DNA from: Lytechinus pictus | Lineage: Eukaryota | Direction: 5' to 3' | Assembly: GCF_037042905.1 (NCBI RefSeq) | Contig: NC_087245.1 | Coordinates: 2,110,001-2,174,000, forward strand | DNA: 64,000 nt | In this document: positions 1,765-62,123 of the stretch, piece after piece | How the letters are laid out: the number at the start of each line of letters is the position of its first letter | Position numbering within the stretch: the stretch's first letter is position 1 | Program-made: the position numbers and the translations under genes | Notes under the pieces: generated by a model | What the model was told of the DNA's origin: nothing | The model's input: the letters and a program-made list of their open reading frames with translations, nothing else | Database searches by the model: none

Positions 1765-2424
1765 AGCCTTATTTAGACTAGTCAGAGTGTGATGATGGTA
1801 ACTTATTAGGGCCTATTTCTTTGTGACCCATTCCCTTTAGATATCAGAACAAATTGATGAGGTTACCCAATGTTTGCCTCAGCAATTAATATGAAAAATG
1901 CTATCCAGAAGTTTAAAACCTTTTTAAAATTATGTCTCTAGAGGAAATTGGTTTGAAGGAAAATAAAATTTTGATTAGGCCTATTCAGTTCACTAAAATG
2001 TACCTCTAAAAGTTGATCATAATCTGTTGTCTAGTTGCTACATGTAGAACATGAAGTGTCTGTAGTGTCTGTAGTTCTTGTTTGGTCTTGATGTGGAGTA
2101 GGTGTATGTATTATTCCTGGTACATACTGTACAGTGCAATACCTCCTTGGTTTGAGCTAGCTTCAAAAGAGAAAAAGAAGTTACACTCTAAATTCTAATT
2201 CTAAATTTTATATTGTCTATGAATAGTGACCACTGGCTAGCTGTATATTTGATTTAGATTAGAACGTTGTGGATTTAAATATAAAGCTAAAGATTAAACT
2301 CCAAATCTGTTTATATTTAAAGGTTAGACCTTAGGATAAAAAAATAAATACAATGTTCTGCTGGTCACAATCCACCCCCAATGTGGATTTATTTTGAATC
2401 TTTGAAATTTAGAGTAGCCTATAT

Positions 2425-2555
2425 GAAAGGGAGGGAGATGTAAGGAGAGGAAGAGAGACAGGGAAGATGAGAAAGAAGATGAGAAAGAAGAGGAGGAAGG
2501 GAAGAAACAACAAATTAAGAGACAGAATACAAAACAAGATGGAGAGAAAAGAAGG
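2425..2555. repeat. GA-rich low-complexity tract
   Basis: GAGAAAGAAGAT-type purine repeats. Confidence 0.75.
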
Positions 2556-4147
2556 TTAAATATCACCATAACTTCCTTCTGTTGGCTGTCTGTTTCCTGG
2601 CTATATCATGTTTGAAAATATTGCCAAGGGAATCGCAACCATTTTCTGATAGCATCAACTTGATCTATGTCCCTGGGTTAACCCAAATTAATTCCAAGAA
2701 AATATAGTGTTTTCATCCAATTTTTACAGGAAGTTTGTGAAAGGCATACAGAGTGCATGTTGGCACAGATGCCACAGATCAAAGATCAAGTATCCATGTA
2801 AATATTCCGATCGTCTTCTTTTTCTAAGTTAAATTGAGGAAATACATTTTTTAGTTCAATAATACATACAGTAGTTAGTAATTAGCAAAAGTAAAAAAAA
2901 ATAGATTTGTGTACACACTTGCCTGGCATGTAACACAATGTGCTACCATTTTGAAAGTGGTAAATATCAAGATTATTATAAGATTAAGAGATGATAAAAA
3001 TAAAAATAGATTCTTATGGAAATCATTGAAGAGGGTAGAAAGAGAGACATTAGATGGGTGTTTCCCTGTGTCAGTGTTCTCCTACACACTTTATTGTCAT
3101 CTCTGTTTCATGAAGTTGATTCATTTTGGTTCAATGATGAACTAGTCTACATGTACATACACATAATCCACTTCATTCCGCCTCCATCCCCCCCCCCACA
3201 GACAGACGTCATATCTTCTAGTCTCTACCTGATGATGTATGGTGTTTAGATGCGTTCATATTGTATGTGAACCTGCCAACCCCGGAGGTCACATGACACA
3301 GGCTTTCAATATGGCTTTCATCCAATTAGAAAACTTTTTGATCTCTTTCCAAGATGTTGAGAAGATGTTGGATGTCTTGGAAAGCATGTACTGTGGCATG
3401 CGTGATTTAATTCAGTTGGTCGTTTGAACTTATACGTAATTTCCTTTCCCCGTTGAACGTGATGTACTCATACACCCATTCATCCTTTTATAATATTTGT
3501 GAATACTATCAAATAGAGAGATCTGGGTAATTTATATGATTACTCCTAATATTCAATTCAGAGGGAAATAATGGCATCAGCTTTATTTTATGTGGTATCG
3601 CCCCCCCCCCCCCCCATAAAAATATCCTGGCAAGACCCCTGTCTACACATTTTTATACAGGCCTGTTTGGTGTAAAAATAATAAACCCTGGAAAAGTGTC
3701 CTCAATCATCATTGTGTGTAAAAAAAAAAGAGAGTAAAAAAACATGTAGAAAGTGATTAGAATTTGGAAAGTGACAAAAGGTACAGACTATCATGTTTTG
3801 ATGAAGTTACCCAATATTTTCATAACTTTTAGTATTCTACTTGATAATTTACATTCCTGATTCATCACTCATATTTGAAGCATTGACATTTAACAATTCC
3901 AACAAATTACACAAAAATCTAAAGTTACTTTAAACCCTTTAAAGATCAGTGGAAGTGTTGAAAATACTTGAAGTTGAAGAAATTGATGCAGGAGGTCATT
4001 GACTTCTAGTGCTTAAAGTCAGTGAAGTAATGTTATGAATAGCAGCTTTGTACATGTTTGATGGAAAGGGTCAAAGTTGTTATTCCACTAATTGTCAAGC
4101 ATAGTAGCAGAGTGATGAATGATGGGATGGAGGTCTATAGCCACTTG

Positions 4148-4700
4148 TACCCTTTTTACACACGCTAAAATTTCCTTAACCCCGTACTATAGGTGGGGCT
4201 AAATTGCCATTTAGCCCCACCTATAGTACGGGGTTAAGCTTAGCCCACTTTCTTTTTACACAGCATTTTTGCAAAGTGGGCTAACCCCACCTATAGTACG
4301 GGATTATTTGGCCCTGCAAAAAAGCAGGGTTATCCCAGCAATTGCGGTGCTAAGAGCGATAGTACGGGGTTAAGATCGCTAGTGTAAAACGAAAGTGGGC
4401 TAAGCTTAACCCCGTACTATAGGTGGGGCTAAATGGCAATTTAGCCCCACCTATAGTACGGGGTTAAGGAAATTTTAGCGTGTGTAAAAAGGAATGAACC
4501 CTCAGTGCGCTCGTGAATATTCACGAGCTACCACTAGTCCGGGGTTAGCGAGTTTCGTGTGTGAAAAGCAAGCATTCCTTATCCGGGGATAGCAATAACG
4601 ATTTGGCATGTGTGAAAAGGAAAAAAAGATAGTACGGGGTTAAGGATAGTACGGGGTTAGCGATAGTCCGGGGTTAAGAAAATCCTGTGTAAAAAGGGTA
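4148..4700 (+). mobile_element. PIF/Harbinger-type MITE, hairpin family A, copy 1
   Basis: TIR TACCCTTTTTACAC...GTGTAAAAAGGGTA; two perfect 30-bp-stem hairpins; near-identical to 10595-11161 and 34047-34625; flanks TTG/TAA (imperfect). Confidence 0.9.
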
Positions 4701-5240: not shown

Positions 5241-6552
5241 CTGAGGGAATACTCCAGTTGGCTAATATCACTCATAGCTCATGAGAAGTAATGTTCTTCA
5301 CCTAAATGATTGTCTGTTAGAAAAGATGCCATCATGTGATGAAAGACATGCTCATAAGTCATAAGACCTTCAATATTGTCTTTTCAATTTTCACACTTGA
5401 CTTGGCCAAGAGAGAACAACTGTTCTATTCCAAGATGGCATTTAATCTCTTTGCAAGTTAAAAAAATACATAGATCTGAAATAATATTCAGTTATTCTGA
5501 ATTTGTTTTATGAAATGATCCTTTTCTTATTTTGTGTGCTCATTGTGCTTTCTTGGCAGTAAAATTTATATCTTTGATTTGAACTCTTGACATTTCCTGT
5601 GGCTGTGGAAAAACTGATCCAAATTATACAATTTTATAGTTTGTAGTTTGGTGTAATTTCATTGAATTAATTCGACAAAGTTTGCTGTTATTGCTTCTAG
5701 CTTTTCTTGATGCTAAGAAATAATTTCTTTTACTGTTGACTGTACATGTACTATGCAGTAGGGATAAGAGTAAATGGTTTTCAGACTTTATGTGAGTCAT
5801 CATTATGAATCATAACAGGACAAAGTCTATAGAGTTTTAAAGTGTTTGAAATGTTTTGAGATACTTTGAAAGGTTGCCATGACAATGGATGACACTCCCA
5901 GAGAAGGGAAATTGTCAAGGGGGTATGGTTTTGTGGTTTTCCACAAAATCTAATAGATGGGCAATAGTAGATGTTATTTCATGAATTAATAGTACTAGCT
6001 ATCACTGCCTGTTTGACAGTTTTGACTAATGATTACATCAACACAGAAGTTTTTGCTCATGCAGGCCTCCATTTACATCTATATTGGCAGAATACAGATT
6101 GAACTGCAATAATCCTATAATATATTCACAAGCGATTTTGCTATATTATATACTTTAGATTCTATTAATGAAGCTTGTATAGTATACAGTCATGTTTATG
6201 TTATATAACTCATTTGTGAAACGTGGACTACTCAGCACTAGTCATAGTATTTGTATAGGTCATTTCTTTGGCAAGGTTGTTTAAGTGATTGTATAAAGGC
6301 AGGATTTGTAGTGGATAAGAGCTCTTTGTGTATAAATGCAATGGTCATTGATTTTTGTAACGATAGATTTAGTGAAGTACATTGTAAAGTTTGAATTGGG
6401 ACACATTATAGGTTAATCCTCCAGATTCCTCCTACATTATTACTCCTTCATTACAATCGCTCCTTGGCAATTTCCTGCTTGAATAAAATTTGTTACTTTT
6501 ATCTGAGACCTGTCTTTATTATTTTCCATATAAAGCCAAACTCGACATCTAT

Positions 6553-7021: not shown

Positions 7022-7237
7022 TAACTAAGGCATAGAGTAATTACTTATTAGTTTCTAGTAAACCAAGTTATAATGTACAGACATCATCATCCTATATAAA
7101 CTAAATCATTGAGCTAGATCCATTCCTAAACACCAGTCCAATATGAATACATTTTTTAGAAACTACATGTACTTGCAGTCATAAAGCTACATACTTAAGA
7201 AGTCACTGCATACCACCACGAGCTGGAGGACATAGAG

Positions 7238-7471: not shown

Positions 7472-8651
7472 ATAGAGGAACAGAAGATCCTGCATCCAGA
7501 ATTGAGTTTTATTATTCTAATTCAAACCTCTATTCAACTCACACCTCAGATTGGGTGTAAAATAAAGTTTATAATATTTCAAATTTTAACAAAACAGTTG
7601 AGGATAAATCTAGAAAATATATATATTTTGAGAATTCTTGATTTGTGTACAGTCTGGAAAAATATGTACAAATTAAATTTTTTCCGCTGTTTTGATTTAA
7701 AAAAAATCGAGGGGGGGGGGCAGGTGGTAAAATACCAGATTTTTTTTCCTTGTCTAAGAATATAGAATCTGGCATTGAAAATAACATAGTCACCATCATG
7801 TGACAACTTACGTTATGACCATGGATCTACTACATCTATATTCGTCTGTGAATCATTAATCTTTCATCAGTTTTTCCAGTTCTTGGAAAGGGTTTTCATA
7901 CAATGTGCATGTACTTGCACAATGCAAACATCCTACAAGCGTCCGCAAAAACCTAGTCATTAACCTACACAAATTGTTGCATGGAATATCTCACTTTATT
8001 TCATATGGGAGGTGCATTTGATGAGTAACAATTGAATTGAACAAAGATCGGCAGTGTTTTTTTTTAGTGTTATTTGCTCAGTGAGTACAATCAACAAGAT
8101 TCTAGTCTACATCCAGACAAGGAAGGCCATTTTATATTTTAGAAATGAAAAGGTTTTTATGTCAAAGCATTATAAAGACCTGTTCAAGTGTCCAGGGTGT
8201 GATGTTACTAAAGTTTTTTTTCTAAATTTATTTTTCAATCTCCCTAAAACATCACAATATTTGTTAACTAAGTTTCACTTGTCACATGATATTACAGATG
8301 TCATAATTTATTAATTCTACTAATGAAAATGACACAGATTATCTTAAAAAGTGTTCATGAGATTTTGAATTCAATCATGTAGGCCTACTTTACAGTCTTC
8401 TGAGAGAATCAGTAACATATTCTGGAATAAAAACTAAGCCCTGCAAATATGTTTTCATTACAAAATTTGTTGAGTGCATGATTCTTTTATAGGTTGTGTG
8501 GTTTGACAATATTCCATTCTATTGTAGATGTTGATTTGATAATTACTTAAGTTCTACCATACATGTACATACATGTATACCACAGCACTGTATAAGGATA
8601 GTGGTCTGTTGTCATTTATACAGTAGGGGACTATGCCCTACGTGTTGTTAA

Positions 8652-11161: not shown

Positions 11162-12431
11162 TTATAGGACAGAGAAGACAGGGTTTTTCATAGTTCACTT
11201 TTGCAAGATTACATAGGCCTACAGATTTACTACCACCCCCACAAAACAACAACATACTGTTGTATATGTAGCTTATTTAATTTGCTTGCAAGCCTGATTA
11301 CAAACAATTTTAAAAAGTAAATATTTTATTATGGATTATTGAATCAATGATGTGTAAATGTAGGCCAATGTCTGTTCTCTACATGGGGATAGCATGAAGA
11401 AAATTCAAATTAAACATTCACCATTGCCAGATTGTACATCAATTTACGATTCACCAGGTGTGTAGTAAATAAAGGGGGGGGGGGAGGCATCACCAACCAC
11501 TTACTGGCCTGACAAAATGGGAGAAAAAGTCAATAATTTTCAGATTATGATTTGGTATTGGATGCATTTGCTGGTATGTGGATGTGATACTACTAGAGAA
11601 CCCTCGTATAAATTGGGTAGGGCCATGAAGTGCAAATACTTCTATTGCTTTAGAAGTGGACCAAACAAGTCAAGCTCAATACCATTCCAACTGTATTCAT
11701 GATGTATTTGTAGAATTCATTCTTATGTACAGTATGTACTTCACACATTTGTACAGTGGAATAGAGGCTTATTTGAAAAAAAAACAATTTGCCAGTGAAT
11801 GTTGAACTAGTGCCAAATCATGATTATGATCCAATTTAATTTGCAATTTTTGTATACACTTATTGAAACTGGTACATGTATGCATGTCAAGTAGCTTAGA
11901 AACATTCATTATCAAGTCAAAGTAAAATTATTTCTCAAACAGACAATCTCTTTCCTCTCATATTGATCAAGATATTTGGTATTTCGGACCTTTTAAGTTT
12001 AATTATGATTATTTAAATCAAAATCTTGTATTCCTTAAACCCTTCACAGATAATCTGATCAAGAAAGGGAGGGTTTTATGTAAGCAGTCAGAGAACCAAT
12101 TACTTCAAAGTCCTTGCCAAGGGATGTGGTATGAAGATATAGATGCCTTAAAACCAAATGGCAGTTTTTGCTCAGACTAGTTTTAAACTTTGGTCCCTAT
12201 TTTGTAAGATTTTACATCTTGCATCTTCAGTATACAGTACTAATGTATCCTAAATGTGTAGCATTTGTTGTATTAAAGGAGTTAAGTAAAATAGTGTGTG
12301 TTCAATGTTGAGTTTCAAATTTAAACAGCAACATGAATCATTGTTGAAAACTCAGTTACAAAATACAGGACACAAACACGATCAGCGGTGCACTGTTCAG
12401 TGTCAAAAAATATAAAGCTGTTTATATGTTG

Positions 12432-12925: not shown

Positions 12926-14264
12926 TTAAATTTCCTGCTTTCGTTAGTGCAGTTTGACCCATCACAAGAAAGGTCAGTTTGGCACCTGCTTGTGTAGGCT
13001 CCACTGCGAGAGCAAAATCAAAGACGTAATAGAACTCAATCGTGTTCAATGTGGTATTTGCGATGCTGAAGTCGTAAATCTGTGGTGATCGCGTTTACAG
13101 ATGTATCTTTTTCAACGTTTAAATTTTTCTCCGAATCGTGATTCGAAAGACGTTTACTTTTACGCCAGGAAAATGGAGGACTTTGAACGTACCCTTTGTT
13201 TCTCATTATATTGGTGTTTTTTAATCACGTTTTCAATCATGATTCATGTTGCCACTTAAACTTTGAAACTGACATGGAACATACCCTAAGACTGGTTATT
13301 GGTTAAAAGAGTTAAGTAAATTGATACAGTCTTTATTCAAAACTACGCTGTCATAAATCATCATTACCGTAATTTTATTGTTTTCGATTGACTATGAGTC
13401 AGCTAGTAGTGAACTTTGGAAGACTTATCATTTATCAACATTCTACAACTGTTTAAAAAGAAAAGTTCAAAGTAATGTCATGTGACAAGAATTATAATTG
13501 CCTATATACCACCAAACATGCTTAAAACTGTCGCCCTGTCAGCACTAAACCTGTAGAGAGATATTCAATTTAATTTAATTTAAAAAATGGTCTGTATTGA
13601 TGATCAAACATGTTTATAATTGTCGTACATGTACGTGAAAAACAGCCGCAGCTGGAAATTTCATGTGGACAAGTTTGTATAGGCACAATAAATGATATAG
13701 GTAAAAACAGTAAAAATATTAAAAAGGCTGTATTCAAAAAGCTAATTAATGCAATTTTAGATGAAACTCATAAGACAATGAATGAATATAACATGATATG
13801 AATAGTATTTTTTAAAAGTAGTCACCTTGAAGGAGAGAAGACTCACACTTTATACAAAATCTAATGACAAAAGTTACTTACAAAAGTCACAGCTGAAACT
13901 GTTGACAAATCTGGAAAATTTAAACCTTATTTTGCAATTTTGGCTTTAAGTAATGCACTGTAAGAATGAGCAAACTTTTTATTCCAAATGGTATTATATG
14001 TGAACATTCCCTTCCATGTTCCAGTAGCAATGTACAAGCTGTTTTCATTTTCAGTTATCGAATATTTGAGGTCACAAGACAAACATCATTACAACTGATA
14101 GGACTAAAGGTTATCATAGATAAGATGGTCTCAGATCTAAAGTAGTTAACTTAGTTATGTTGATGATTACTGGTAGCAGATATCTTGGTACTTTCACAAG
14201 TGTAATACCGAGACACCTGATGAGGACCAATACTCTTTACCAAACCCTTTAATACCCCTGTCAT

Positions 14265-18882: not shown

Positions 18883-20547
18883 GATAGCTAGCAATGACTA
18901 CGATTCCTCATCCATGTCAACTGCCCTGATGATTGGGTTGACAAAAGTCATTCAATTACAGTCTAGGGCGGAAGAAAACGGCAGGAGGTTTGTAAAGAAA
19001 GATATAAGATTCTTCAGCTGTGATTGTGTTTGTGTATGGTGGTATTCTCTTTGTTATAGGAAATAACTGTACTTTACAAAGAAGTTATTGCATGTTAAAT
19101 ATAAATTTCAGTTGTGTTGGCTCATCTATTCATATATTGTGCCTGTTGATTAATCAGTTACATTGGATTGTTGTTGTGGATGTTAATGTTATGAGAAACA
19201 TTGAGTTTCTTTGGTGAATACTCATCAGATCTGTTATTTTGAATGTATACGGTTCTCTGCTTTATAATAGCCAACAATTGGCTGCTTTTTTAGCATACTA
19301 CATTAAATTGCTATATGATGCGATCTGGACTGCATTTAGGCGACCTCATACTACTGTAGAATAAAAACTATGAATTGTGATTCAAAACACATGTATACAT
19401 AACTGTAACTGCAGAATCAGGGTTTAATCAACTTTCTTTCCAATGCTTTTTGTCCCTCACATCAAGTTTTGCCCTAATTGCCCTTTTTTGAACGAAACTC
19501 TGCAGAAACCTCTTTCAATATGCCCCTTTTTTCTGCGTTTCATGTTTCTGATTTGAAACACATTTTATACTTTTGACTAAACGCAATCGTGATTCTTCAG
19601 AAACGTGTGTTTCAAAATGTCTTTCAAATCATGGTTCTAGAGTAAATAATTATTAACTAAAGGCACCCTTAAATGATAAGCAGTAATATCTTCCGTCTCG
19701 ACATAAGTTTATTTCTTTTCATATTTTCATTAGAAAATTGAAATGTACATTATTTGAATGTCAAGGTTTTGGAATAAGGGCTACACCTGCCTAGATCACC
19801 ATCACCATGAATACCTGGAAATCACACCCCCTTTTGAAAATTCAATCTTCAGTGAAGTTTAATGTTTGTTCATTCTTTGTTGTTAGGAATTATATGATGC
19901 ATGTTACATGTACATGTGTAAATATTATTGAATCATATGATCAGCTGAGTTGCTGACTATTGTGAGCCCTCTTTTTGAACCCCTTGTATTTAGTTAGACA
20001 CAGCATGATGAATACACCATCAACTACCAATGTTCATGTACTACTGCACCTGTCTTTATTCCATGTTAAATGATCACATGACCTTCATCATATTCGCCCT
20101 TCAACTTTGATTCAGTTCAAATATGGCCCATGGTCCCATCCAATCATATTAAAAGAGGGAAGCCCTTCGTTACACTCATCATTTTGACAGGGAACGCGTG
20201 GAAATGGTTTGGAAGACGAGGGGGGTTCCTTCCTACCACAAGATGCTGAAGGAATCAGTGCAAAGAGAACCCGCTGGGATCATCTCTGTAGGGTTTCATA
20301 CCATAGAAAGTATACCATCATGTTCACACCACAAATGGTAGAACTTGGCTTATTTTTCTGTTTTGCATTAAGTTGGTCTCAGTATCATCCTGAGAATCTT
20401 TTGAACTTGTGATCTTAAAAAAAAAATAGGCCTGTTAGTATATTCTCATGCATGAATAAGATCAAAATTATGTGTTGGGCTAAAATCATCTTTGTATAAA
20501 TGAAATAGTAGTTGTCTAATCATGCATTTGCGGATAATAGTCAATTA

Positions 20548-21821: not shown

Positions 21822-22068
21822 TTACAAGGGAAGTGCAGGAGTCAAAGAATGTTGTAGGCCTACCAACTACAAGTATATAAATTTTCTGTATGTATGGACC
21901 TAACAGATTTATTTAGAAGCTACATGTAAGTCAGGCTGTATGGTATGAGATATGATTTGTATTCTGTTATTAGCACCCAAGTGAGGTCCACAGTCTAATA
22001 AATCATAGTCTAATTGAGGACTGCAAACAACTTTGTCATGTAGTTGCATCTCTTCTGAGATGCAGTTG

Positions 22069-22533
22069 TATGCTTTTCACACTGTACTTACATGTAGACC
22101 CACCAATTTCCCGAGGTTAAGCTTAGCCCACTTCGTTTTCACACTACGTTTTAGCAAAGTGGGCTAGCACGGTAAATAGTACAGTACTATCTGGCCCTGC
22201 AAAAAAGCAGGGTTAGCCGGCTTATTGTGGTGCTAGCACCACAATTGCGGTGCTAAGAGATGCAGTGTGAAACGAAACTGGGCTAAGGAAAAGTGGGGCT
22301 AAGCAATAGCCAATCACAGAAGTCGAAATTGCACGTTATTCACGCTCTGTATGGTAAAGTTATCAATATTCATGAGCTGTGGGATAGTCCGGGGTTAAGG
22401 CATTAACCCCGGCTAAGCAGATAGTATGGGGTTAAGAAAGACAGTGTGAATCCAAAAAAAGATAGTATGGGGTTAAGGATAGTCCGGGGTTAAGGATAGT
22501 ATGGGGTTAAGGAAATGCAATGTGAAAAGCATA
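22069..22533 (+). mobile_element. PIF/Harbinger-type MITE, family B, copy 2
   Basis: TIR TATGCTTTTCACA / TGTGAAAAGCATA; reverse complement of 6553-7021 with the left hairpin arm replaced by a short filler containing TACATGTA. Confidence 0.88.
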
Positions 22534-25500: not shown

Positions 25501-26539
25501 GACAAGTTTGAATGGATATGATTACCATGAAAATGATCCCTGAAATATATTTTTCAAATCCTTTTAAAATTTCTAGACTTTAGAATAATAACATGCAATG
25601 ATTCATTGATTAATATAGGCCTACTTGACAGGAACCATTTTAAAACATCCTATATATGCCTAATGAAGCTGAAATAATCTGTCTCAGTCTTCACCATTCC
25701 ATGAAACATGTAGGCCTATTAAATAAATATGCCTGAATTAATGATAATGACTTAATTGTAGGTCCATGGTGAAAGTTAAGGATCATCTTTGTCAATTGGC
25801 TTTATGGCCTTCCTTGAAAGAAGGATATTAAGATAGCTGTATGATATAACTATATAGATTAAAAGTGAATGATGATCGCTACAAGGATATGTGTGTCTCA
25901 CTCCAATCTGTTCATTCTTATTCACATATAAAACATGCAGTGTGTCAATCAGATCATGTGAATTCAAAAGGTAAGGAGACATCGACCACAAACATTTTTT
26001 AGATGCAGATTAAACCATGTTTTTTTAGGAAAGTGATCAGAATATGCAGCCTATATGCCCTAATTGGAACTTGAACTTACAGACCCTAAAGTTATATATT
26101 TGTGCCGAACTTGCCTGCATACATTGGTAATCTTCTTTATGATTTCCATACATGGTTTAATTAGAATGGCTGATCCTTAACTGTTACTCTGCAAAATCAC
26201 TCTGATTTTCCCATAAGGATTGTGATAAACTAATGATATGCAGTGATATTTTATTTAGCACTATCTGATTTGATTAGTTCAATATTATATTTCAGGTGTG
26301 AATAGGGCCTGAAATACATGGGGCATGTCGTGATGAGCTATCTACTCTCAGTATCAATCATGGGTCATCAGTATTTTGTCTTTCTACAGCCAGACATCAA
26401 CATGATACCCTTTCACACTAATGAGTATTATATGTCACGGTATGGAGTGATGAGTACATCAACTGGGTTAGGGAGGTTTAAGAGTGGATTTATTTCTTTC
26501 AGAGAAAACTAAATAATGATGAACATTATTTCTATTTAA

Positions 26540-32346: not shown

Positions 32347-32444
32347 TTAAGCATCGGTCTCACAACCTGGAGGTCTGGGGTGCAAGCTCTGGCCGTGTCA
32401 CACCAAAAGACATTAAAAGATGGGAGTTGCTGCTACCCTATTTG

Positions 32445-32885: not shown

Positions 32886-34046
32886 TATTTGGCGTTCAAC
32901 ATTGCAAGGGATAGAGCTATGTTGATCTGGCGCTGCACAGTGGCTGCCGGGCTCACGATCAATTTGGCAAAAAGAATTTCAGTATTTCAATTTCAGATTT
33001 CGTTTAGAACAATAAAATATGGATTAAAAAAAAATCATCAATTGTATGTTTTATGTAACAAGTCCCTAGTTTGGCTTTTCTTTTCTTGGCCCTTCATATA
33101 ACTACAAGGGTTTTGATCAGGGAGTGTTGGGACACCATCATTAGTCCTAATTGGCACGTTCTTCAATGTGAACTTTGACATCCAGGAAGTGATATATCCA
33201 TGGGATGGGTCAGATAAGTCATCCAAATTGGATATTTGGTGTTGATTTTGTGAATGAATTATGGCTTTCGGGAAGGAAGCTAGTACAGGAAGCTGGTGGG
33301 CCGTCTTGGGTTAGATCAGGCCAGGCTATCGGATCTGGTAATGGTTTACAATCATTATCCTTGTTGAACAAGATTTCACAACCGCTTCCCGATTTTTGTA
33401 TAGTAGAAGTAGGGGTCATAGAGTTCAGTACATGGGTTTGCATACATGTCACAGCAGATTCTTTCAACCTACTAGTTCATTTAGCACAGTAGAACTAATT
33501 GTACATGTATGAGATTTAGAAGTGATCTGTGATTTATCTGAAATCATCACTACTGCTTGAAGTGTAGAACGATTGAATGTAATCAACATCTGGCTGTAGG
33601 AGTTTAAATTATTCTGATTTTACTTATGGGGCGATTGTCATGCATATGAAAGTACATCCATTGTTAATAATATTTATTACAACCTTTTGTGAAATTTTTT
33701 TTCTCCAAAATAATGGTTGCCAGGACAGACATGTTTTTTATATAGTATTGATAAAATTGAGATTTAACTCACAACACTGCTAACTTTCATCTTATTCACT
33801 TCCATATAAGGCAAAAATTTAATGTGCCATCATCCTGGAAATTAAGTTTCACTTTTTAGCTTTATTTTTTTATTTCTTTTATTACTTATAATTTTTGTAT
33901 TTTTCTCCCAACATGAATATAAGCCTCATTCATAATTCAACAATAAAAATCTTTAAAATCTCAAACAAAATACAAAAGTATCTTGTAACAAAAAGTGTTT
34001 TAAACTAACACTAATCATGGAGTTCTACGTAGTGCACTAGTTCTAA

Positions 34047-39830: not shown

Positions 39831-40526
39831 TTAAACATGAGCCAGCAACAGGACTCTCAAATTCCTATCCAAAGAATGCACATTCGGGGAGTCTTTATCA
39901 AGACAAAGTGGGTACCTTTGCCTGCTATTACTGATTCGGTAGTCTGATCAAAGAATATCAGGCTTATTTTCTCCTGATTTTTCACTGAAAGAAAAGGTCA
40001 ACCCAAAACATCTTGGACCAATGCACACCAAGTTAAATCTTACTTTGTTCTGATGAAGACGCAATACAAACTTAAGCTTACTTTAGCTGATTCACATGGA
40101 AGGGAGCTAGAGTAACCACTTCAGGTGAAGACCAACCTATTTCAAAGATTTTGTACTTCGCTTTCCCTTTGCAAAAATCCCAAAGATTTCCAAAAATCCT
40201 TGTTAAAGTTCTCGTGATTATCAAACGTAGGCCTATCTCCTAACTTGCAGATTTTGTTTTGGAGATACATGTATTATGAGTAGGGCCTACTTTGTTTTCA
40301 CACTTGCAAACTACATGTTATTTCCTGATCTGAGTAGGATGCCAAATCAGACAATATTGACAATGATAGAGTGGATATGAATGTACCTTATGGTGGTCAG
40401 GATATCTGCTGAAGTAATTGCTACCTTCTCTTTTACTTGACCTCCACTTTTTAATCAAGAAAGGGGATGACTGAGTAGACAGAGCTGTGGTGCCAGGCTG
40501 AACTTGGGTTTAGAAAGTTCTCTACA

Positions 40527-42027: not shown

Positions 42028-43669
42028 CTGTTATTAAAGCGTTAATGTCATTATAGCTGAATAACTTTCCGACTGTAACTGTATAACTGATCACATCTTA
42101 GTGGCCCTCTTCCAGGACAGGCAACTGAGGCTAGTGTGTGTGTTTGCAATGTCATCCCTTTTTAGGGGGGGGGGGTAGATTGCTGCTATAATGGGAATTA
42201 GTACATGTAGATGTCATTCAGTACCACATAAATTGTGCCATTAAATCTATTAATTTATGAGTTTGTTTGACTGGATTGTGATAATGATATCTGGTTGAGA
42301 TTCCTCTGACCATGTAAATACAAATGCATTGTCAGTCAGTAGAAGCACATGCAGGGCAGACTAGACTCTTCACCGAGAAGCCTTTACTTTACTTGAAACT
42401 ACCATCATCAAACTTGTATTAAATATATCTGTATGTCTATTCTTTTTTTAACTGTTTTCTTCATTGTGGCATGATATCATTTATATGTACAAGCACTCCA
42501 CCATGTAGCATCTTCAAAAGGCTATGAGCAATGCTTTTGAATATTTGTGTCACTCAAGCTTTGATTTAAAGGTTTTTAATGTCCCTCTGGTTTTGACTTA
42601 CTCTGCATGACTTTGGACCTGTAAAAGTTCAATAACTCTTTCTTGCAATGAATATGCAAACCCTTGGGACCTTTACAGCTGTGATAGTTTCAGTTTCTCT
42701 ACAAATAGGTTCTTGATTTTACAAACAATCATCTGGCCCCATGGGCAGATTTTTAGCAAAAAGGTAGATGCGATAAGTTAACACTAGGTCCTGTTAAGTC
42801 AATAGTCATGTTCATACATGTACATGTCATAGTAATTAGATATTAGACCATCTACTCGTTCCATTCTATTTGGAGTTGGACACTCTATTTACTCTCGTTT
42901 GTTTTTACTCTTAAAATAATTTCCGGCTGAATTATTTTTTAAGGGGATTGCATCATACCAGTTATGATATTCTATTCTAATAAGTTCAGAGTTTGAAAAT
43001 GAATAAAATATGAGATGAAATGAAAGTTGTATTGTAACAGTGATGAGAAATACATATATCTGAAATGTTTTTTTTTATGTAGGCATATGTTTAAGCTTAC
43101 AACTGAAATATCTGCGAAGAAGAAAAATTTCAGACTACTAATAATTTAATTGTTTCCTTTTTGGTATTAATAACAACCCCTTCTCGATTTTAATTTTATT
43201 GTTTGTTTTACTTTCATTTGAGATGTCCTTCACCTAATTGGAAAAGTTTACATTATCGCGACACTTTTATTTTCCTGTTTTGACTCAAATGGAGAAGTGA
43301 ATAGGAAACAGAACTACACATCTTTCATTTTGAGATTAATTGAATCATTGAATGTCACATGGGTAAATATAGAATACAAATGGAATAATAGATTGAATTT
43401 GTTTTGCAGGATTTTTTTCTCAAGATTTTTTTTTCAAATAAACAATCATTAACATATGATGTTCTTTTGTTTTCTCCCCAACTTTCTTTTGTTCAACTTG
43501 AAATCCACTGGACACTGTTCTCTTTTGTGGTCATTATTAATAGGTAAGAATAATGATTTATCAAATACATTGAATTTAAATTTTGTGATAATTCTGCTGA
43601 GAATGTTGAATGATACCATGAATGTAGTGCATGTAAATGCTTTTGTTGATGTTGCGTTGCTGCTGTTGA

Positions 43670-43926: not shown

Positions 43927-43990
43927 GGTGATAATGATGTTGACAATGAATGTAAAGATGGAAATAAGGGACATGATGGTGATATAGATA
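43670..43990. repeat. Degenerate (GAT)n microsatellite
   Basis: Long GAT/GGT/AAT array; explains the poly-D, poly-H/S and poly-I ORFs. Confidence 0.9.
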
Positions 43991-49130: not shown

Positions 49131-50839
49131 TTAAAGAATATCCCCTCATGCAATGATGCTGGAGTGGAAGGAGGCATGCATGATTTGAGGCGTAACATAT
49201 CTGCAGCAGTAGTCATATTCAGACGAAAAATACTGTCATCTAATGCTTGGTTGGTGAACCATGCTCAGAAGAAGCGCTAACTTGGTGTTCTCTTGCTGAT
49301 AGGTCCACTATTTGCCTTGATTTTCATCTGGCTACAATTAGTATGGTAGTCTCAAAGAAAAGGATGAGTTGGTGGTTTCAAGGTAAAATATCAATTTGTG
49401 AGCTGTCTCTGTTCTGTCACTACCACGTGGGATATTAAAGCCACTACAATTGGATTCATACTTCGGTTCCAGTTTACAGGCACATTGCTTAAAACATGAA
49501 CTTTGGACTGAGTCACACTATTTGTTAAGATGCAATTGGAATGCCACATACATCCCCTGAACAATAAACAGATGATAGGTGATCAGTCCTGACCTTAAAA
49601 ATCGTGACTTGTGTGATTTACTGTGAAAAGTACCTTTTCTTTGAACCAAATAATGCATTTTTGTGTCTGCTGTTCAAAAGCTAACAAGGATATATTTTAA
49701 AGAAATAGATAAAATTCAAAGAGCATGTGTAAATTTGTTAAGAATAACAAAATCATTCATTTGAGTCATTTGAGTCCCCGTACTAAACATGTTTCTCCTA
49801 CTGGTCATGGGTTCATTTGTAACCCAGCAAGTCTAAATTAAAATTTAAGAATACACATTTAATAGGCCTATTAGGAAAATGAAGCGGCATTGGGATCAAT
49901 CGTATTTGACGTCTATATGCGGTTGAGGATGAGGGAGAAGATCATTCTTAATTGATATCTAGACCTTAGTGTTGGTCACAGTTCATGATTTGTTGTCGTT
50001 TAGAGAATCATCAATCTGTGATGAGTTCTTTACCAGATGGTGTCTAATATGAGCTCCTTTCCTTTGGATTCCATCTCTCAAAGACTGTGTGATTAGTGGC
50101 CATAAGAGGGCACTGTTTAATAATTCATCTGATGGTGTCACGCGCGTAAAACATTCCCCATAGACTTGTGTGTTAAAATGGCACTTTTGAAAAATTCATA
50201 AAAAATAAATGTGAAATTAGAGGGTGGAATGTTTACTACCAATGGATAGGTTATATATCTGACATTCCAAATCTGACCAGGATAGGGTACCGTAGCCAGC
50301 TCATTTAAAAAATAAATCGCCATTTATGAAGATAACTATGAATGGATCGAATTCATCAACTGAAACAGTAAAATAGCCCTAATTATTCCGCCAGTCAAAA
50401 AATAGTTCCAAGTCACTTATTTATCTTCCCAATTTGGGCGAAGGAAGTTCAATAGTTACCATTTTTAGAATCAGTGTTAGATTTTGAATCATATTTATAC
50501 ATTTTTGACAATCAGCAATATCAAATTGACAAAAATTCGAATGGGTTGGGTCGAACGAATATCTTTAGCCCTCCTGATGTAATTAGGCCCGTGGAACCTG
50601 ATGTGGTCTCTGAACACCATGTCCATTTTACAGTGATGTTACTTTTCAGGACAATATAAGAATGCCAATAGATATTTGAAATATATAATTTAACCGTAGG
50701 AAAATGTACTTTATGAAAATTATTAGAAAAAGCATGTTCTTAGATGTTTTCCAAAAGGTTCTTATTAATTATAAGTGTTATCTTTAATTGCTTGGGAGCC
50801 TCAGGTAGTGTCTTAAGTGCCAGAGTAAATGGAATTTCA

Positions 50840-52512
50840 ATATACAAATATATCAGGCTTTGAGAAAGTATAGTGGGAATTATTTATCAGAGGTTGGACT
50901 GGCAATCACTATTTTCCCCAGGGGGCGAAGCCCCACGGGAAAAATTGTTTCACTAGGCGGTGCTGCACCATCCGGAGTTTGCTCAATCTCGAGATTTTAG
51001 CCCGATCGGCCCACTTCGCGATTAATCTCGAGATTCAAGAAACCCCGTCTGCACCATCGCAAGACAGCGATTCCTGCTCGAGCGAGGCAACAAACCCGAT
51101 ATTCCGAGCATGCGCACTTTCGGATCTTGGAGTTTCAACGGCCTGCGCTTTTGAATAACTTCCCGCGATATGCAAGCAATGTACTCCTTTCACTAGCACT
51201 TTCGCCGAATTCGACCGGTGTTATGCAACAATCCTCTCAGCTCAGCGAGTGAAGAAGTGATGTATTCTTCGTTAAATATGATGGCGGAGTAGGAGGCAAC
51301 GACAGAGAGAGAGAGAGGGGGAGAGAAGGAGGAAAGAAGGAGGAAAGAAATGCTATTTGCTCACATTTTGCGAAGGATTAAGACGACACTGCTGTCAGTG
51401 TTGTTATTGAATATGACCATCGTCGATGAGCGCCTCCCCTGGTCTCTCCCAAAATCCATTCACTGGTGGGACACCATCATTGCTGATTAGGCAATTGATG
51501 AACGCTATTCGCGATAAATCTATTCGCATGTATAAAGTTGACTTTCGCACGTGTTTATGTTTTGACCAAGGCGGAAGTGGAACGCGAATTGCATTATGGA
51601 CTGACGTCATGAATAAATTACCCCGAGTCCAATCTCGAGTGCGTCTGCACCTATGAATTAGCAGGATAATTCATAAAATAGCGCGCTATTTTGCAAATAA
51701 ACCCGAGTTGACTTGGGATTGCAATCTCAAGATTAATCCTACGAACTAGCGCGATAATTGCGTCTCCACTGCAAACTATCTCGAGATTTTTCAGATCGGG
51801 ATAATTTGCCGGATCAGAAATAGCGCGCTAATTTGAAAACTCGGGATGGTGCAGACGGCCCTACTGCCAGTCCTAAAGAAACGCCTGATATATTTGTTTT
51901 ATATCCCTCTTTAACTTGTAGACCTAGTCCTTGCTGATTTGCAACCAATCTAGACCAATTCTAATTTTGCCGGACCTAGTCCTAACTAGTCTTAGGCCTT
52001 TCGAGCTAATGCCTGCCAGTCCCTAGGTAGATTGCGTGCGGTTTCTACCCGACTGCAGTTAATGAGAGGTATGCTGCGCTGCTGCAGTTGCACTCAGTGA
52101 CAGTCTCAGGGTAATTTTGTAAGCGTGCAGGTTAACTTATTTTTAAGACTCTCGTATCGGACTTTGACTCATCTTCCACGTATGCTATTTTACCATCAAT
52201 TTAGGTGTCTTGTATGAATGGCCGTCACGGAATTATATTTCTTGCATGATAATCTAGACCCGATTCTACACTGTTCAAATTGTCGGTAAATAATTTGAGC
52301 GAGATCTGGATATGATCCGGTCAAGTCAGGGAGCATGCGCAGTACTCCCCATAAAAGTATATATCGAAGAATATACAGAGCTGGAAGAAAACTATATGGA
52401 ACTATTTGCAGCAGTGTATTTCCTATTGAAATTATTCTTTGTCACATGATCATGAATTGACAAATCGTAATATAGAAAACTCATGAATATTCATGAGAGG
52501 GATATGATAAAC
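50840..52512. mobile_element. Palindromic non-autonomous element, possibly Crypton-like (host of nested MITE)
   Basis: Inverted pairs ACAAATATATCAGGC / GCCTGATATATTTGT and GGACTGGCA / TGCCAGTCC around the hairpin TTTTCCCCAGGGGGCGAAGCCCCACGGGAAAA; second pair TATCCCTCT / AGAGGGATA; no TSD seen. Superfamily is inference. Confidence 0.55.
50956..51860. mobile_element. PIF/Harbinger-type MITE nested in palindromic element
   Basis: TIR GGCGGTGCTGCACCATCC / GGATGGTGCAGACGGCC; TSD CTA/CTA; ATCTCGAGAT palindromic repeats; internal (GA)n. Confidence 0.88.
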
Positions 52513-53180: not shown

Positions 53181-56100
53181 AAAAAACATTCAGGAATCAT
53201 GAATATGTAAATTTCTAGAATATCTTACACACATACGTAGAGGAGCTGGCCACAAACATGTTTTCATTTTGAACTGCATTATATCCACAACTCTCTTAGA
53301 TTATCATGGATTTTCATCTAAATTTAATTGGTATGCTTCTAATTGGTTTATTCTTTCATAATACCAAACTGTTCTAAGGATGGGCCCTTCCAGAGCCAGA
53401 AAGTATTTTAAGATGTTCTGCTAGGGTTACATTGAGTATGGTGGATATCAATTCTGTCCCATATTAATAGTTGTATGCTGCCCTCTTGTGATTGGTTTGT
53501 GCACTGCTTTATTCAGCTTGAACACTATTACAACCAAGCTACATGTAGGTCATTCATAGAGTGAGACTTCTGTATATGATTTTAAAACTAATTGATAGAG
53601 ATGTGAAACATGTAAAGTATTATTCTTATTACAGATAACATTTCTTTCTTTAAATTATTTTGCATTGTATGTAAAGAGGATTTTTTTTTTTTTTTTGGGG
53701 GGGTAATCTGTTGTAGGCCTTATGCTTAGTAAGAATAATTGTTGAATAGGTAATAGTGGAAAAGTCAGTAATAATTTAAATGTATGTGTAAAGTGGATGT
53801 AGTAGTAAAGGGGGGGGGGGCTGTGGAGGGGGCAATGATATTTACCACTGCAATTATCACCTAGATATGTACCTACTTCTAGATACTTGACTTAATAATA
53901 TGAAATAGAGAAAAAGTTGCAGTGTATATGAATAATAAATAAAAACCAATTGGACAAACTTCAAACGATATCACCAAGCAAATTCTCTCACGAGGAGGGG
54001 AAAATCAAGTTAAAATTTGTTTTTCATGATAATTCCCCTAACATTTTGAAAATTATATATTTTGAGTCCATAAAATATAAATGCTGCACTAAACCAGACT
54101 GTAGTAGAGCTTTGGTTAATATACTACATGGTTAACTGGTTTTTCTGACTGGTCCCACCCATCACCATATGTCCTCAGTATGAACCGGTGTTTGACTGGT
54201 GGTGTTCCGATGATGAATCTCATGGCTGATAGGGCATCTTGGCTTTAAGGGGTTCATCTCCCATGAAATGAGGAAACCAGCCAGGAGTTTGTTATTAATG
54301 CAGTTTGTCTACTTTATCAGTAACGCCTTTCTTTGTATGCTCTGTACTGCCTTACTGCCCATACACACAATATAGTAATGTATATCATTGTTGTTTATTC
54401 TGTATATTTTGTGTACTTTTTGAAGCAAAGTAGCATCTAAAAAGTCCTTTGGAAGTGCACAGAGATATTAGATGAAACATAATATTCACTATATGTACAG
54501 AATCTTATATTATTATTTTTTTCTCTCTAAGTATCGTACTAGATTTTTAAAATTCTTTAATTTGAGGTACTCTATTCACAGATTATGCATCGTAATTGTT
54601 TGTGTTTGAAATATTCTCATTGAGATTTGGTCAATGCATTACTAAGACTTACACTTCTTAAAACCATATAGATAAGTCAGTTTATATTCAAATAACCATT
54701 CATGAAGTCTTATTTTGTGTCTTTATGAAACGAAAAATGAAAAAGCTCTTTTAAGAAGGAAATAAAAATGAAATTCTTTAACCTTAGAACTGTATTATTT
54801 CTCCTCAAAATCATGTCACATGATCAACCTTCAAGTCATCCTCGTTATCCATCCTTCTGCTCATCTGTCTATTCGGATGACGAACTTCACTTCATCAATC
54901 TCAAAAACACAAATTTTCTCCCAAATAATTTACTTAATGCAGGGCAGGCTAGTGACGATTCCCCTGTGATTGGCTTAAATGACTCCCGGGGCGACCGTGG
55001 TTTAGATGATTCTTGTCTTCCATTAAATAGATGTGTGTCAAATCAGATTAATGGAGTGGCTATGCCTGTCGGCAAGGCTACCTCTTCTTTTTTTTTCTTT
55101 TCTTGTTACTCAAACTGCGAAGTGGACAGGCTGAATAGAAGATTAACCATAATTTTTCATAACAGATTGGTGGACAAATTGCAGGAATAAGCTGAATGAA
55201 AGCTTATTGTGTATTGTATATTTTGCTTCTATTTTTTTTCCACTGTAGGTGATTATCATTATATTTTTAGTAACTATAGGATGATCTGAGGACCTATTAA
55301 ACTAAATAGTTCGCCTCAGTATTATTAATTACTGTTTATGGATAGTTAGAAGTGTTGTAGTTGAAATTATGATTGTAAGACCGAGCTTGTTATGAATAGT
55401 AAGTTCATAATTACACTTCGATTGATGTTTCTAGATATTTTTTATGTATTGGGTAGAACTATTTATAAGGCAAAATATTTAAGGCTATCTCACATTAGTT
55501 TAGACATAGAAAAGTACTAGAAATTCAACCAGTCCTTGTTTACGAAGTAGGACTGTGTGCATAACCTTGCGCCCACTTTCACCATACATGAATGCAGTAA
55601 ACATCAACCAATCACACACCTTGCTTGGAAGATGATTCTAACCAATCAAGTGTGATGATGACTGGTCAAGCGGATGTAATGGCCCAGAGAATCACCGCTT
55701 GCACCATTTTCTAACCAGTCACAAGAATACTTAGCAAATAATATAGATGCATTTGTGTCTTGTAAACCGTCTTATTGAAGTCCCTTGGGGTGTTCAAAGA
55801 AACCAATCATTCATCTTCTTTGATTGCATTTAATTTTGGAAGCTTCAAGTCCGAGGTTCCTTGTGGGATAAAGCTTCACGACATTCATAAAAGCCCAATG
55901 TTTTATAAAGAATGGAGATTAAATGTTTAAGATCTTTCATTTAATTTTATTCATTTTTTCTTTTATTTCTTTGGTTCCACTCATGTCAATTTTCCCTGCA
56001 TCAAGTTTAAAAAGATAATCAAATGCTATATATTTTCGTGATTATATTTTTATGATTTTTTACTCATTCAAAATCTCAATGATTTGTTTTTATTTTCAGG

Positions 56101-58460
56101 ATTTTCCTATTTTCTTGTACTGCAATATCATTGTACAAAAGTGACAATTTTGAACTTAGGATATTAGCCATGAATTAAAACCAGAAGATATTTATCTAAT
56201 AGTTTTAGAACATGTTCAGTTTCTAAATGTTGGATAGATGGACAGATTGGGATTGAGAGATATACATTCAGTCAGATCATTCACTTGGCGGTGATCCTTT
56301 ATGGTGATATCTCACAAGAATATAAATGTAGGGCATTTCTTATGACGTGATAGAGGATTCATTGTCACCCAATGACGTTATGATGGCTTTAAAAGGCTAC
56401 TTATACATGTAATTACACTACAGGTGTTTGCTCACTGTCAAAAGCTGATGTATACTACTTCATCCTAATGAAAAATGTCTAAATTATTATAATTAGCACG
56501 ATGAGGAATAGAGAGAGCTTTTTGTAATGAAAATGGATCTTAATTACGCTATGTTTGATTTCACACAGTTAATATGTTATGAGAAAGATTTATTTTTAGC
56601 TGTGACTAAAATGAAATTCTCAAGTGACTAATTTTATTGAAAATTTTGTGGAGTGCACAAAGGTAAAGTATTCTCTTTATTTGATGCCGGAATCAGTAAC
56701 AGCTTCATTGTTATCCTAGCCATTTTGTTGGCATTTATTCGCATCATTTTATAAAACTGTGTGAATTGTGAATTCAAATTTAAAGTAAAGCTTTCCTCTA
56801 TATCATATCATACAGTGCTGCCAATTGCACTTTAATATATGCACTTATCCTAATAGTAATATACCTAGTTTACTTGCAAGTTAGTGTACAGATATAGCAG
56901 CAAGCATGATTACTGTCTCTTAGATAGGACTGTTATCCAAACCATCATACTAAATTTAATTTGCTGCTGTAAACATTTTGAAATGATTTTTTTTTCTAAT
57001 TTGCCCTTGAATTAAAAATGTGCCATTTCTACAACAACAAAAATGGAACTTTCACCCAAAATAGAATCTGGCTTCCACTTTGATTGTGATTGTGTATATG
57101 CAAGGTTCAAGGTTTTCTCTTCCTAAGTAAAATACAATATCATTTATCAGAAAACAAGTGGAATGTGTTGCACTATTCCCTGAAAACTAGGACATTATTC
57201 ATAGAAATTGAGTATTAAAGTGATAATTTTGGAGTCCCATTGATTACCAGTCTGTGTGTAATGCAGCATCGTGAAATATTGGCAAAATTTTGTTTGAAAT
57301 CCTGGAAGGATTGATGCAGAAGAGAAGGGTTACTGTCACTGGTTATTGTATGCTGAGACGTAATTGAATTGTTTTATTGACCATGATGATGATTAATAGG
57401 TAGAATGGGAGATGAGTAGGTGTCAGGAGTGGGATGCTGAATCAAGATCATGGCTGATACAGAATGAAAGACAGAAATGAAGGTTAGAATGGATGAAAGT
57501 GTGAGTGGGACGAGAGAGAAAGAGTTAGAGGTGAGAATACACAGGAAATTAATAGACAGAAATGTTTAAAATCTGTTCATCTCTGCTCTATGACTTTGAA
57601 CATGTTAAAATAGTTGACATTGACACCACATAGATACACATAGATTCTATATTTTGTAATTTCTCTCTGAATTGTGATGTATTTGATGCTGATTTTCAGT
57701 CTCAAACTTGTTATAATCCTACTCAAAGGTCTAGAAATTCCAATAAATTTGTCTTGATTTCACATTGCTTCATTGAAAAATACCAAGCCAAGCTTGTAGA
57801 TGTGAAGTATAGCAGCACTTGAAGAGGGAAAGTAATAAGTAAAGGTTAACGTCTATACTCCTGTCTTTAATCAGGTATAATATGACAGTGACAGTACTTG
57901 ACAGATTTCTGTTTTCTTGCCATTCAGCATTTCCACTAGATTTGGTGAAAAATATGAAGCGTGAAAAAAAGGTGCACTTGTTCAAATGCAAAGAAGTAAG
58001 AATCTGTCCTGTTTTAAATGTGATTGACAAGTATGAAATGTTTCTTTATATGGAATATCAAAAAGTATTTAATGGCTATTCAGTTGGTCAATGTTTTTCT
58101 CTTAAAACAGAAAAGATCTATTTGAAAAAAGGCGGTTTGGGTCAGTAACTGAAAAGCACATTGTTCCATTCTTCAGGATTACTGACATAAGTTCAGAGCA
58201 ATAAAAAATCTTAAAGTGCGAAAGTAATTAAATGAGATACAGGCAAACCTCAATATTATATTTAGATTCTGAAAAGATCATAAAATCAAAAATATCTTTA
58301 CTGGGAAAAAACGTTAGTAAGCACGAGCACTGGAAAGTAGTTTTTTAGTAAATCGTTTGACAGCAAGTGCTTGTGCCCCTTTACAACGCGTAATTACGTC
58401 ATTATTTACGTCATTGTAGGCAATTACAGTTATACCAAATGAACGAGCTATCAAAACTCT

Positions 58461-59584: not shown

Positions 59585-60660
59585 AAAACACACACACACA
59601 CAAATATCGGTAGAAAATCGGGCTAACGCCCTTCTGCCAGCCTTCGAGCTAATGCCCTTCTGCCAGCTGTTTGACGAAATGTCTTTGAAAATTGTTTTTC
59701 TAGGGTTAAAAGTGTGTATATTGAATGCAGTAATTTCATTTCTCGCATTCACTATACCTCACATGGACTGAATATCAATAAGCATTTCTTTACCTCATTT
59801 CTTTCCTTTCAGTTAAAATCATCATTGACTGTTGATAAGACTATGTCTCCCAGATCAAATGTCTATCTTGCTTTTGTGAAAAGACAAAAGTCAAGTCTGT
59901 AAACATGATATGTAAAGGGGAAGAAGACAAACACAAATTTATGCACCTGGGACCAAAGTCCAATCGTCTATGTGCATCAAAACTTATTGGCTCAGACCTG
60001 AAAACACAAGCATCAAGTAATATTTGTGTTCTCGAAGAACTAACAATACCCTCCTATCCAGGGACCTATATTTAGGAATCTTTAGTGTGTTGGGTCTTAG
60101 TTTTAACCTGTCCTATATTGGATTAAATCATCAATAGAGGGGCTAACTGCGAAAGACAGATTGTCCTGATATCTTAAAAACTTAAGATTTTCATGGTTTT
60201 ACACTAGAAATAGATTAGAAATCTAGTATGATATCACCCATGCATCCATGATGTTTGTATGGTATCTGTTATGAGCAAATAGTATGACCTTGGTGCATAA
60301 GAATACATGTATAGAAACACAACATCCTTCCAGTTCTAATTAAGTGCAAGTATACTTACAAGGATTCTCAAAGTAAAATATTGGTAACTTAAACGTTAAC
60401 TACCGCCTCTGAAAAATCAAGGTGCTCATAGTGCTTGATAAAATGTATTTGTAAGAATTTGAGAATAGTTGTGAATCCATGTGTAAAACTGATAAAAGAT
60501 AGGCCTAAGTTGCAACTTATAATTATGCTCTTTAACAAAAACTAATATGCTTGCTATATATTCTGTATTTTGGGATTTGTATAAGATAGAGTGAGTTATA
60601 AACTAAAGACTATTCATTGATGCAGGAGTGCATGCCACCTACAAAATAAGTTCAGTTGCA

Positions 60661-61039
60661 ATTCGGTGGATTCACAATATGGTGCGCCATCTATCGGTTG
60701 CAGCGAATAGGCCAAATTTATAACTTTGAGGTCCACATCGCACGCAGGCAGCGCACAGTGCTAGTGCTTCAAAAATGAAAACCATATGGCAAGAATTCAC
60801 CAAAAACGGTCTAAATTTCGCAAAGAAATATGCAGGGAAATTTCTCTCCTACCACTTGCACCCTAGTAAACAGCATATCCGATCGAGCCGCGTCGGCCAG
60901 CGCTGAATAATCACATGCATCCATTCACTCTTAGTACTAGCATCTGAACAGATGTTGACCTTTTCCCATGATGCATTGTGAATTTTGGCCTATTCGCTGC
61001 AACCGATAGATGGCGCACCATATTGTGAATCCACCGGAT
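60661..61039. mobile_element. MITE with ~60-bp near-perfect TIRs
   Basis: CGGTGGATTCACAATATGGTGCGCCATCTATCGGTTGCAGCGAATAGGCCAAA and its exact reverse complement; TSD and exact ends unresolved. Confidence 0.85.
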
Positions 61040-62123
61040 AGTGCAGATCCAAAGTGACCATGCTCCATTTCAGAAACACATTGAAATTCTCTTATCAAAT
61101 GATCTTGCATATTTATCCTTACTTCCAAGGCAGACAGCTTGACATTGAGTACTTTGTAACAATTATTATTGTGCTAATTAAACTACACATTAGTTTCAAT
61201 CTTTTTAATGGTAATGTCAGATTTGCCCTCATCTTCTACTAGATAAAATAAAAAAATTGAAGTGCAAAGAGTGTGTGTATAGATTTTGTTTACGAGTTAC
61301 CTGGAATAGATCAGTACCTGTAGTTTGATGAAGTTTGACTGGCTCTTTGCCAGATATTGTAATTTGAATCACACAAAGGTTATCATTTTATTCTGCAATA
61401 GTTTATGGTTCATTGTAACATTATCAAAAACACTTTTGTGAAAATGGGCCTCAGATTCCATCATTCCTTGAAATAACAAATGATTAAAGAGCTTCATCAG
61501 TGCTTATTATTTAATGTGCAATTTGGACACAACTAGCACAGCATGCATGGAGTAATAACAACAAAATTCCTTGAATACTAATTCCCAAATCGGTGGATTA
61601 AAATGTCCAATAAAATTTTGCTATTTGAGATTCTGACTATTTCTTAGAGTCAACTTTCTTCTCTTCTGTTATTCTTCTTGTATTTCTTTTAAAAACATCC
61701 CCCACCTCATAAAGCTTTTTAAAGTTTGTACTCCTTTTTATCTAATCTTCTTTTCAAGTAATCTTGCCTCGCTTGACTGGAGGATAGACTAGTTCCAGAC
61801 TTTCCCATTTATTTGAAAGTTAGAAGAAAAGTTGAAGTTGAAGAAAAGCTGATCTGATCATGTACATGTACCTACATGTACAGTACTTACCTGTCTCTGT
61901 AATTGTGAGTAGCTAGCTGTACCCACCTACCTACCTGTATACTAAACATTTTCATTGTAGAAATCTTGCCAGCAGTTGAATTAATTAATATGCTTATGGT
62001 TACATTCACTCCGAAGCTACTCCTTTCCTTCTATCTCTCTCTTTCTGAAACGAACATTTTTATCAATTTATGAGTAGTCATTATTTATGTGCTTTTGTTA
62101 AAACCTGTTCATATGTTATTTAA

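Follow-up and report, generated by a model that had tools for sequence, protein, structure and literature searches.

The 64-kb window analyzed here (Lytechinus pictus, contig NC_087245.1, positions 2,110,001 to 2,174,000) consists of AT-rich, non-coding animal DNA filled with MITEs (miniature inverted-repeat transposable elements), over which two 8-nucleotide palindromes, TACATGTA and TAGGCCTA, are dispersed. The two words differ in their middle four letters, CATG and GGCC, respectively. The first-pass annotation of this DNA read them as excision footprints, or scars, of transposons and counted by eye 22 copies of the former and 10 of the latter. These counts and coordinates are exact, as 32/32 positions match and there are no extra copies in the window (Table 1). 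The observation of two over-represented palindromes is therefore confirmed.

Over-representation was measured under two repeat masks. The first removed in-window repeats, with 52.8 kb remaining, and the second removed all transposon-like DNA delimitable by eye, with 45.9 kb remaining and the words themselves excluded from Markov training. In the 52.8 kb, TACATGTA and TAGGCCTA rank first and second among both the 136 TA-N4-TA words and the 256 palindromic 8-mers. In the 45.9 kb, TACATGTA was observed 20 times against 1.7 to 2.2 expected (p ≤ 3e-13) and TAGGCCTA 9 times against 0.3 to 0.9 (p ≤ 4e-7) under Markov orders 2 to 5, so that the previously claimed excess persists at every order. Unmasked in-sample expectations at order 5 are higher (7.7 and 5.2, respectively) because the words inflate their own background. 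A 10- to 25-fold excess is limited to the two TA-bounded words; TAAGCTTA (10 copies) was considered as a third word or family of the window and rejected, as 7 of its 10 copies are a MITE-internal motif. Outside the in-window repeats lie 30 of the 32 sites. The pair at 8560 and 8570 is a single TACATGTA plus a perfect 10-bp tandem duplication, and the duplication at 61863 and 61873 matches at 9 of 10 positions. Consequently, the 22 copies of TACATGTA represent about 20 events, two pairs being local 10-bp duplications.

Table 1. Sites of the two palindromes, with one candidate source element, in window coordinates (all features given without strand, shown as a dot)
Feature	Position	Strand	Remark
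TAGGCCTA	1976..1983	.	unique DNA
TACATGTA	2039..2046	.	CATG core 2041-2044 left out in one run X5 contig
TACATGTA	3148..3155	.	length unchanged in X5 record 26 (0 letters omitted over 3003-3314)
TACATGTA	5743..5750	.	length unchanged in X13 record 20 and X5 record 29
TACATGTA	7164..7171	.	exact match
TAGGCCTA (8380) with CATG adjoining left TA, no outer TA	8376..8387	.	
Two TACATGTA (8560, 8570), perfect 10-bp tandem duplication	8558..8577	.	
TAGGCCTA	11214..11221	.	exact match
TACATGTA	11873..11880	.	exact match
TACATGTA	13626..13633	.	exact match
TACATGTA then CATG, no outer TA	19905..19916	.	
TAGGCCTA	21855..21862	.	exact match
TACATGTA	21921..21928	.	exact match
TACATGTA	22089..22096	.	junction of net 37-bp internal MITE deletion; word not in paralog 6549-7023
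TAGGCCTA	25616..25623	.	exact match
TAGGCCTA (25711) with CATG adjoining left TA, no outer TA	25707..25718	.	
TACATGTA	27759..27766	.	exact match
TACATGTA	31934..31941	.	in old TTAA-flanked MITE 31740-32350; other arm without word, alignment too poor for gap size
TACATGTA	33502..33509	.	exact match
TAGGCCTA	36667..36674	.	in old MITE; paralog 45592-45850 (72% alike) without GGCC, net 3 bp shorter
TAGGCCTA	40228..40235	.	exact match
TACATGTA	40266..40273	.	exact match
TACATGTA	42202..42209	.	exact match
TACATGTA then CATG, no outer TA	42815..42826	.	
TAGGCCTA	49863..49870	.	exact match
Inverted-repeat element, ~0.9 kb, only in-window GG..CC source candidate	50955..51862	.	
TACATGTA	53540..53547	.	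exact match
TACATGTA	56404..56411	.	exact match
TACATGTA	60304..60311	.	exact match
TAGGCCTA	60500..60507	.	exact match
CATG and two TACATGTA (61863, 61873), 10-bp tandem repeat 9/10	61859..61882	.	

Transposon DNA holds 3 of the 32 sites, against 25% of the TAs (p = 0.027), and 6 of the 31 inter-site gaps are 100 bp or shorter, with 2.1 expected (p = 0.012). The 29 sites outside transposons, a density of about 0.6 per kb there, lie in CpG-poor DNA (CpG observed/expected of 0.28 versus 0.39; shift test, p = 0.008, and p = 0.11 for the GGCC sites alone). No site falls in the CpG-rich, promoter-like bin 44001-48000, and the open frame of a long interspersed nuclear element (LINE) at 62232-64000 carries none either. 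Furthermore, both words share a bias in the base just outside the TA, where C is raised (24/64 versus 17%) and A lowered (9/64 versus 32%); T at +3 is also raised (33/64, p = 0.003), a value that fails correction for 32 tests. With regard to a ATATATAT-type target, the excess base at +1 is C, and there is no flagged excess of T at +1 or of A at +2.

The one-mismatch neighbours of the words carry an age signal. Those of the CATG word number 49 against 40.6 expected, which is not significant, and those of the GGCC word 23 against 8.3 (p = 2e-5). Near-matches are thus in excess rather than depleted, which fits decaying neutral inserts. The excess implies a decay of very roughly 5% for CATG and 17% for GGCC, on small counts, and the GGCC words look older than the CATG words. 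In this respect, the words behave as neutral, ageing inserts at TA.

Reads were compared over positions 1900-8640 (6.7 of the 64 kb and 8 of the 32 sites) in 4 of 16 runs, with run X10 contributing repeats only. The gap evidence consists of the 12 of 173 gap rows listed, 6 of them outside repeats, and 3 of the 8 sites are readable; the listed unique pieces show a divergence of 7.8% for organism A and 0.7% for organism D. One contig of run X5, from a relative about 8% diverged, exactly omits the CATG at 2041-2044, and this is one of the six listed non-repeat gap rows, for which the rough chance of meeting a scar core is 0.03. Two further 4-base gaps lie within 20 bp of this site, where the local alignment is shaky. 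Provided that the neighbouring letters match, the X5 allele would read TA-TA, shorter by four bases and not six. Among the 40 of 553 substitution rows listed, none falls at a site. Within the window, GGCC is missing from the paralog of the MITE that contains site 36667, and the net gap of 3 bp is compatible with a six-base gain plus a three-base loss, without proving it. At 22089, TACATG stands at a deletion junction, and the word is not in the paralog. The gaps in the in-window repeat alignments gave no further scar-type insertions.

The same words were also sought in metagenome contigs, where a scan for the doubled word returned at least 120 loci with 148 matches. The middle four letters are CATG in 43 of the 148 listed matches and GGCC in 2 (L027 and L093), and many loci are microsatellites. 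From the 57 of 120 loci that passed a complexity filter, 26 were chosen by eye, and L015 was then dropped as gene-dense and bacterium-like. The remaining 25 eukaryote-like loci (86.6 kb, seeds masked) contain 44 copies of TACATGTA (3.4 expected), 6 of TAGGCCTA (0.6 expected) and 6 of TAAGCTTA (1.1 expected). Since this selection favours TACATGTA enrichment, the loci show occurrence elsewhere and not frequency. In an all-against-all alignment of the 120 loci (57 of them in one comparison), no orthologous pair over a site was found among the pairs listed. The excluded contig (L015:1-10224) has 17 copies of TACATGTA in 10 kb, with T...A flanks, and represents a separate, HIP1-like use of the word.

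We consider that the words are probably excision scars of TA-targeting DNA transposons, produced by a 2+2 fill-in route. Insertion of a TA-targeting cut-and-paste transposon would duplicate the TA. After an excision cut two bases inside each end, the flanks would carry non-complementary 3' overhangs of CA (or GG). If end joining retained and filled in the two overhangs, the product would be TA-CA-TG-TA (or TA-GG-CC-TA), six bases over the empty site. Such scars may accumulate neutrally in old, CpG-poor DNA, probably methylated and belonging to gene bodies, and then decay, with the GGCC wave presumably the older of the two. This reading joins the enrichment, dispersal, flank bias, age signal and missing core (in two comparisons) observed here with a cut geometry taken from the Tc1 literature. 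We infer that transposons were the agents at this locus, as we do everything about a GG..CC family; the source elements are putative, above all for GGCC.

Tc1 excision produces non-complementary two-base 3' overhangs (PMC4490562). Among germline revertants of repair-proficient Caenorhabditis elegans, TACATGTA makes up 24 of 103 products, one of the two commonest, beside precise loss in 25 of 103 (PMC4490562, supplement file 4), and 3 of 39 in polq-1 mutants (PMC4490562, supplement). Its form, TA plus two bases of each end plus TA, is class L of the worm table, an agreement in form only. The revertant assay selects in-frame products, and therefore +4 scars cannot appear there, whereas +4 is the typical somatic scar of Tc1 in the worm (78%; PMC13148408). 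The first-pass annotation was thus right that TA-CA-TG-TA is a real germline product of Tc1 but overstated it as classical, since the usual scar in worm soma is +4, a class without enrichment in this window. The flank-templated inserts in the worm table also resemble our 10-bp duplications. The worm spectrum is broad (26 products), while one 8-mer dominates here, and our second word, GGCC, is without a Tc1 counterpart.

Other TA-targeting systems offer partial parallels. Minos leaves a footprint of six bases (PMC10992017), and ZB and Sleeping Beauty leave footprints of 0 to 3 bp at a ATATATAT target (PMC7913693). Like our words, they involve a TA target and a short scar of constant form, built from TA and the element ends, but the letters are different, and C, not T, is preferred beside the TA here. 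For Stowaway, footprints were inferred phylogenetically across Triticeae (PMC1925063); past excision is likewise read from scars, with 1 to 4 bp of the element ends within the TA duplication, but at a single locus with several scar types rather than as a genome-wide word. The mechanism is already known; what is new is the GGCC class, together with how uniform and how dense the words are. No publication on the genome-wide accumulation of these words was found by a search whose coverage left most subscription journals outside.

Several observations weigh against excision by this route. Of the 17,708 end pairs checked in the window for TA/CA..TG/TA elements and the 2,901 checked for TA/GG..CC/TA, the former yielded none and the latter no clean one. 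Although the core is sometimes missing (2041, 36667 and, as TACATG at a deletion junction, 22089), the gap in the relative measures 4 bp and lies in an untidy stretch. The clean 6-bp indel expected in the earlier interpretation was not seen in the paralogs or among the 12 of 173 gap rows listed. By gap arithmetic, two of the three readable orthologous sites (3148 and 5743) are unchanged in length. The flanks agree with the Tc1/mariner ATATATAT target at one of three positions, the uncorrected T at +3. A +4 somatic Tc1 scar reads TACATA or TATGTA, and neither ranks in the top 6 of the 10 TA-N2-TA words (0.8-fold at rank six); the +5 Sleeping Beauty-type TACAGTA likewise stays outside the top 6 of 32 words. 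Finally, the proposal of many insert-and-excise cycles at the same site is not supported: CATG adjoins a scar TA at 5 of 64 sides (0.7% expected, p = 1e-4), but all five lack the outer TA and full double scars number 0, so that scar stacking on a shared TA was rejected. The adjacent CATG is better, though only partly, accounted for by local duplication or by a preference for TA next to such a CATG. Overall, the earlier interpretation is partly supported. As a separate observation, TAGGGCCTA or its reverse complement occurs at 1807, 40281 and 45141 (3 versus 0.17 expected, not significant over 512 words) and may be a relative of the GGCC scar with one extra base.

The search for source elements qualifies the claim of a second, GG..CC family not present in the window. 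It holds insofar as no clean TA/GG..CC/TA element exists, but GG..CC ends do occur, with 3-bp or ambiguous duplications. Two readings exist for the ends of the inverted-repeat element 50955-51862, TA/GG..CC/TA or ACT/AGG..CCT/ACT with a 3-bp duplication; the 16 matches of its end in the viral collection were taken as chance. The element at 35835-36559 starts with GGCC, has a 3-bp CAA duplication and is nested in an older MITE, whose paralog has the empty site. A 3-bp-duplication origin for TAGGCCTA was rejected, since 9 of 80 non-repeat GGCC have TA on both sides and 1 of 80 has TAA; AGGCCT with a 3-bp repeat was found in 1 of 17 cases. The scars thus lack a surrounding three-base duplication of the kind that we take to be the PIF/Harbinger footprint. 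A 1,081-bp element at 17802-18882, with CAG..CTG ends and inner inverted repeats at 18193-18489, was dismissed as a Tc1-like source, as its duplication is a 4-bp GATA. The MITE pattern search matched 0 metagenome contigs, and the compound word search 0 viral contigs.

It is conceivable, though unlikely, that an invariant four-base palindrome (CATG or GGCC) is the mark of a novel kind of TA-targeting element, or of a novel insertion process, with re-ligation of self-complementary ends. Such an agent would have marked roughly 1% of the TAs within CpG-poor gene bodies and would recur in several animal lineages, so that germline excisions by perhaps extinct families could be dated across the genome. 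Quite improbable, in our view, are excision scars of elements with CATG or GGCC as their first letters and with cuts four bases in from each end, the self-complementary flank overhangs re-ligating to an invariant scar. This would explain the single dominant word and the absence of enriched +4 and +5 siblings. In Minos the footprint consists of four terminal bases plus TA. A length of 6 bp has been reported for it (PMC10992017). GGCC-starting elements are present in the window (35835), but that one has the CAA duplication, no TA-flanked element starting with CATG or GGCC was found in the window, and TACATGTA is on record as a product of the simple 2+2 route (PMC4490562). We are just as doubtful of a non-transposon mutational process, such as repair from a template, the insertion of four bases within TA-TA or a HIP1-like process that converts near-matches. 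The four-base gap among the listed rows, the local duplications at two sites and the adjoining CATG without outer TA all suit it. HIP1 is an iterated palindrome, and the gene-dense contig L015 shows the same 8-mer, TACATGTA, highly iterated. However, its T...A flanks are the opposite of the flank bias here (A follows the word in 13 of 17 L015 sites versus 6 of 44 sides in our window), the near-matches are not depleted but in excess, A is reduced at +1, and the LINE frame holds no site. In our reading, the 36667 paralog also agrees better with a single TA than with TA-TA, and we know of no such palindrome-writing process in animals.

Selected protein binding sites are a very improbable explanation. 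Two of three readable sites keep their length in the relative about 8% diverged, and TACATGTA appears in the abstract of a paper on an oomycete MYB factor (PMC11134190). Nevertheless, neutral DNA would also be expected to keep its length at 8% divergence, and the comparison there concerns length and not letters; one core is lost in the relative, the promoter-like bin has 0 sites, and the sites favour CpG-poor DNA. A by-product of CpG decay or of slippage in purine-pyrimidine microsatellites is hardly credible either. The CpG-poor surroundings and the many metagenome matches to the doubled word in such microsatellites would agree with it. CpG decay is largely refuted by its unenriched sister products (TATGCATA, 0 versus 1.5; TACACATA, 4 versus 2.9), TAGGCCTA is without a CpG route, and the arrays called by Tandem Repeats Finder contain none of the sites.

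Excision of a DNA transposon usually leaves no countable trace, and thus its leaving rate and germline repair route are hard to measure. If the words are excision scars, a recognisable mark with two age classes and a density of about 0.6 per kb would make excisions countable, datable and mappable against methylation, and it would point to a TA-targeting GG..CC family. In practice, searches for motifs in genomes of this kind will pick up the two words as contaminants.

Other elements of the window were noted in passing. The MITE at 4148-4703 is missing in X13 record 18, which joins 4147 to 4704, an insertion polymorphism of 553 bp plus a 3-bp duplication; the duplications of two sister copies (10595-11161 and 34047-34625) are TTA and TAA. 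A foldback element of 1.6 kb (38049-39646) has arms of about 730 bp, 95 to 96% complementary, and an inverted-repeat element at 60663-61037, with 59-bp arms, is readable with a 2-bp AT duplication. The LINE at 62232-64000 is young and runs off the right end of the window, with an uninterrupted 589-codon frame that covers the endonuclease domain and the start of the reverse transcriptase. On the + strand, first exons that probably encode signal peptides are predicted at 1026-1135 and about 46185-46270, both with a GT donor directly after them, the latter within the CpG-rich, scar-free bin 44001-48000.

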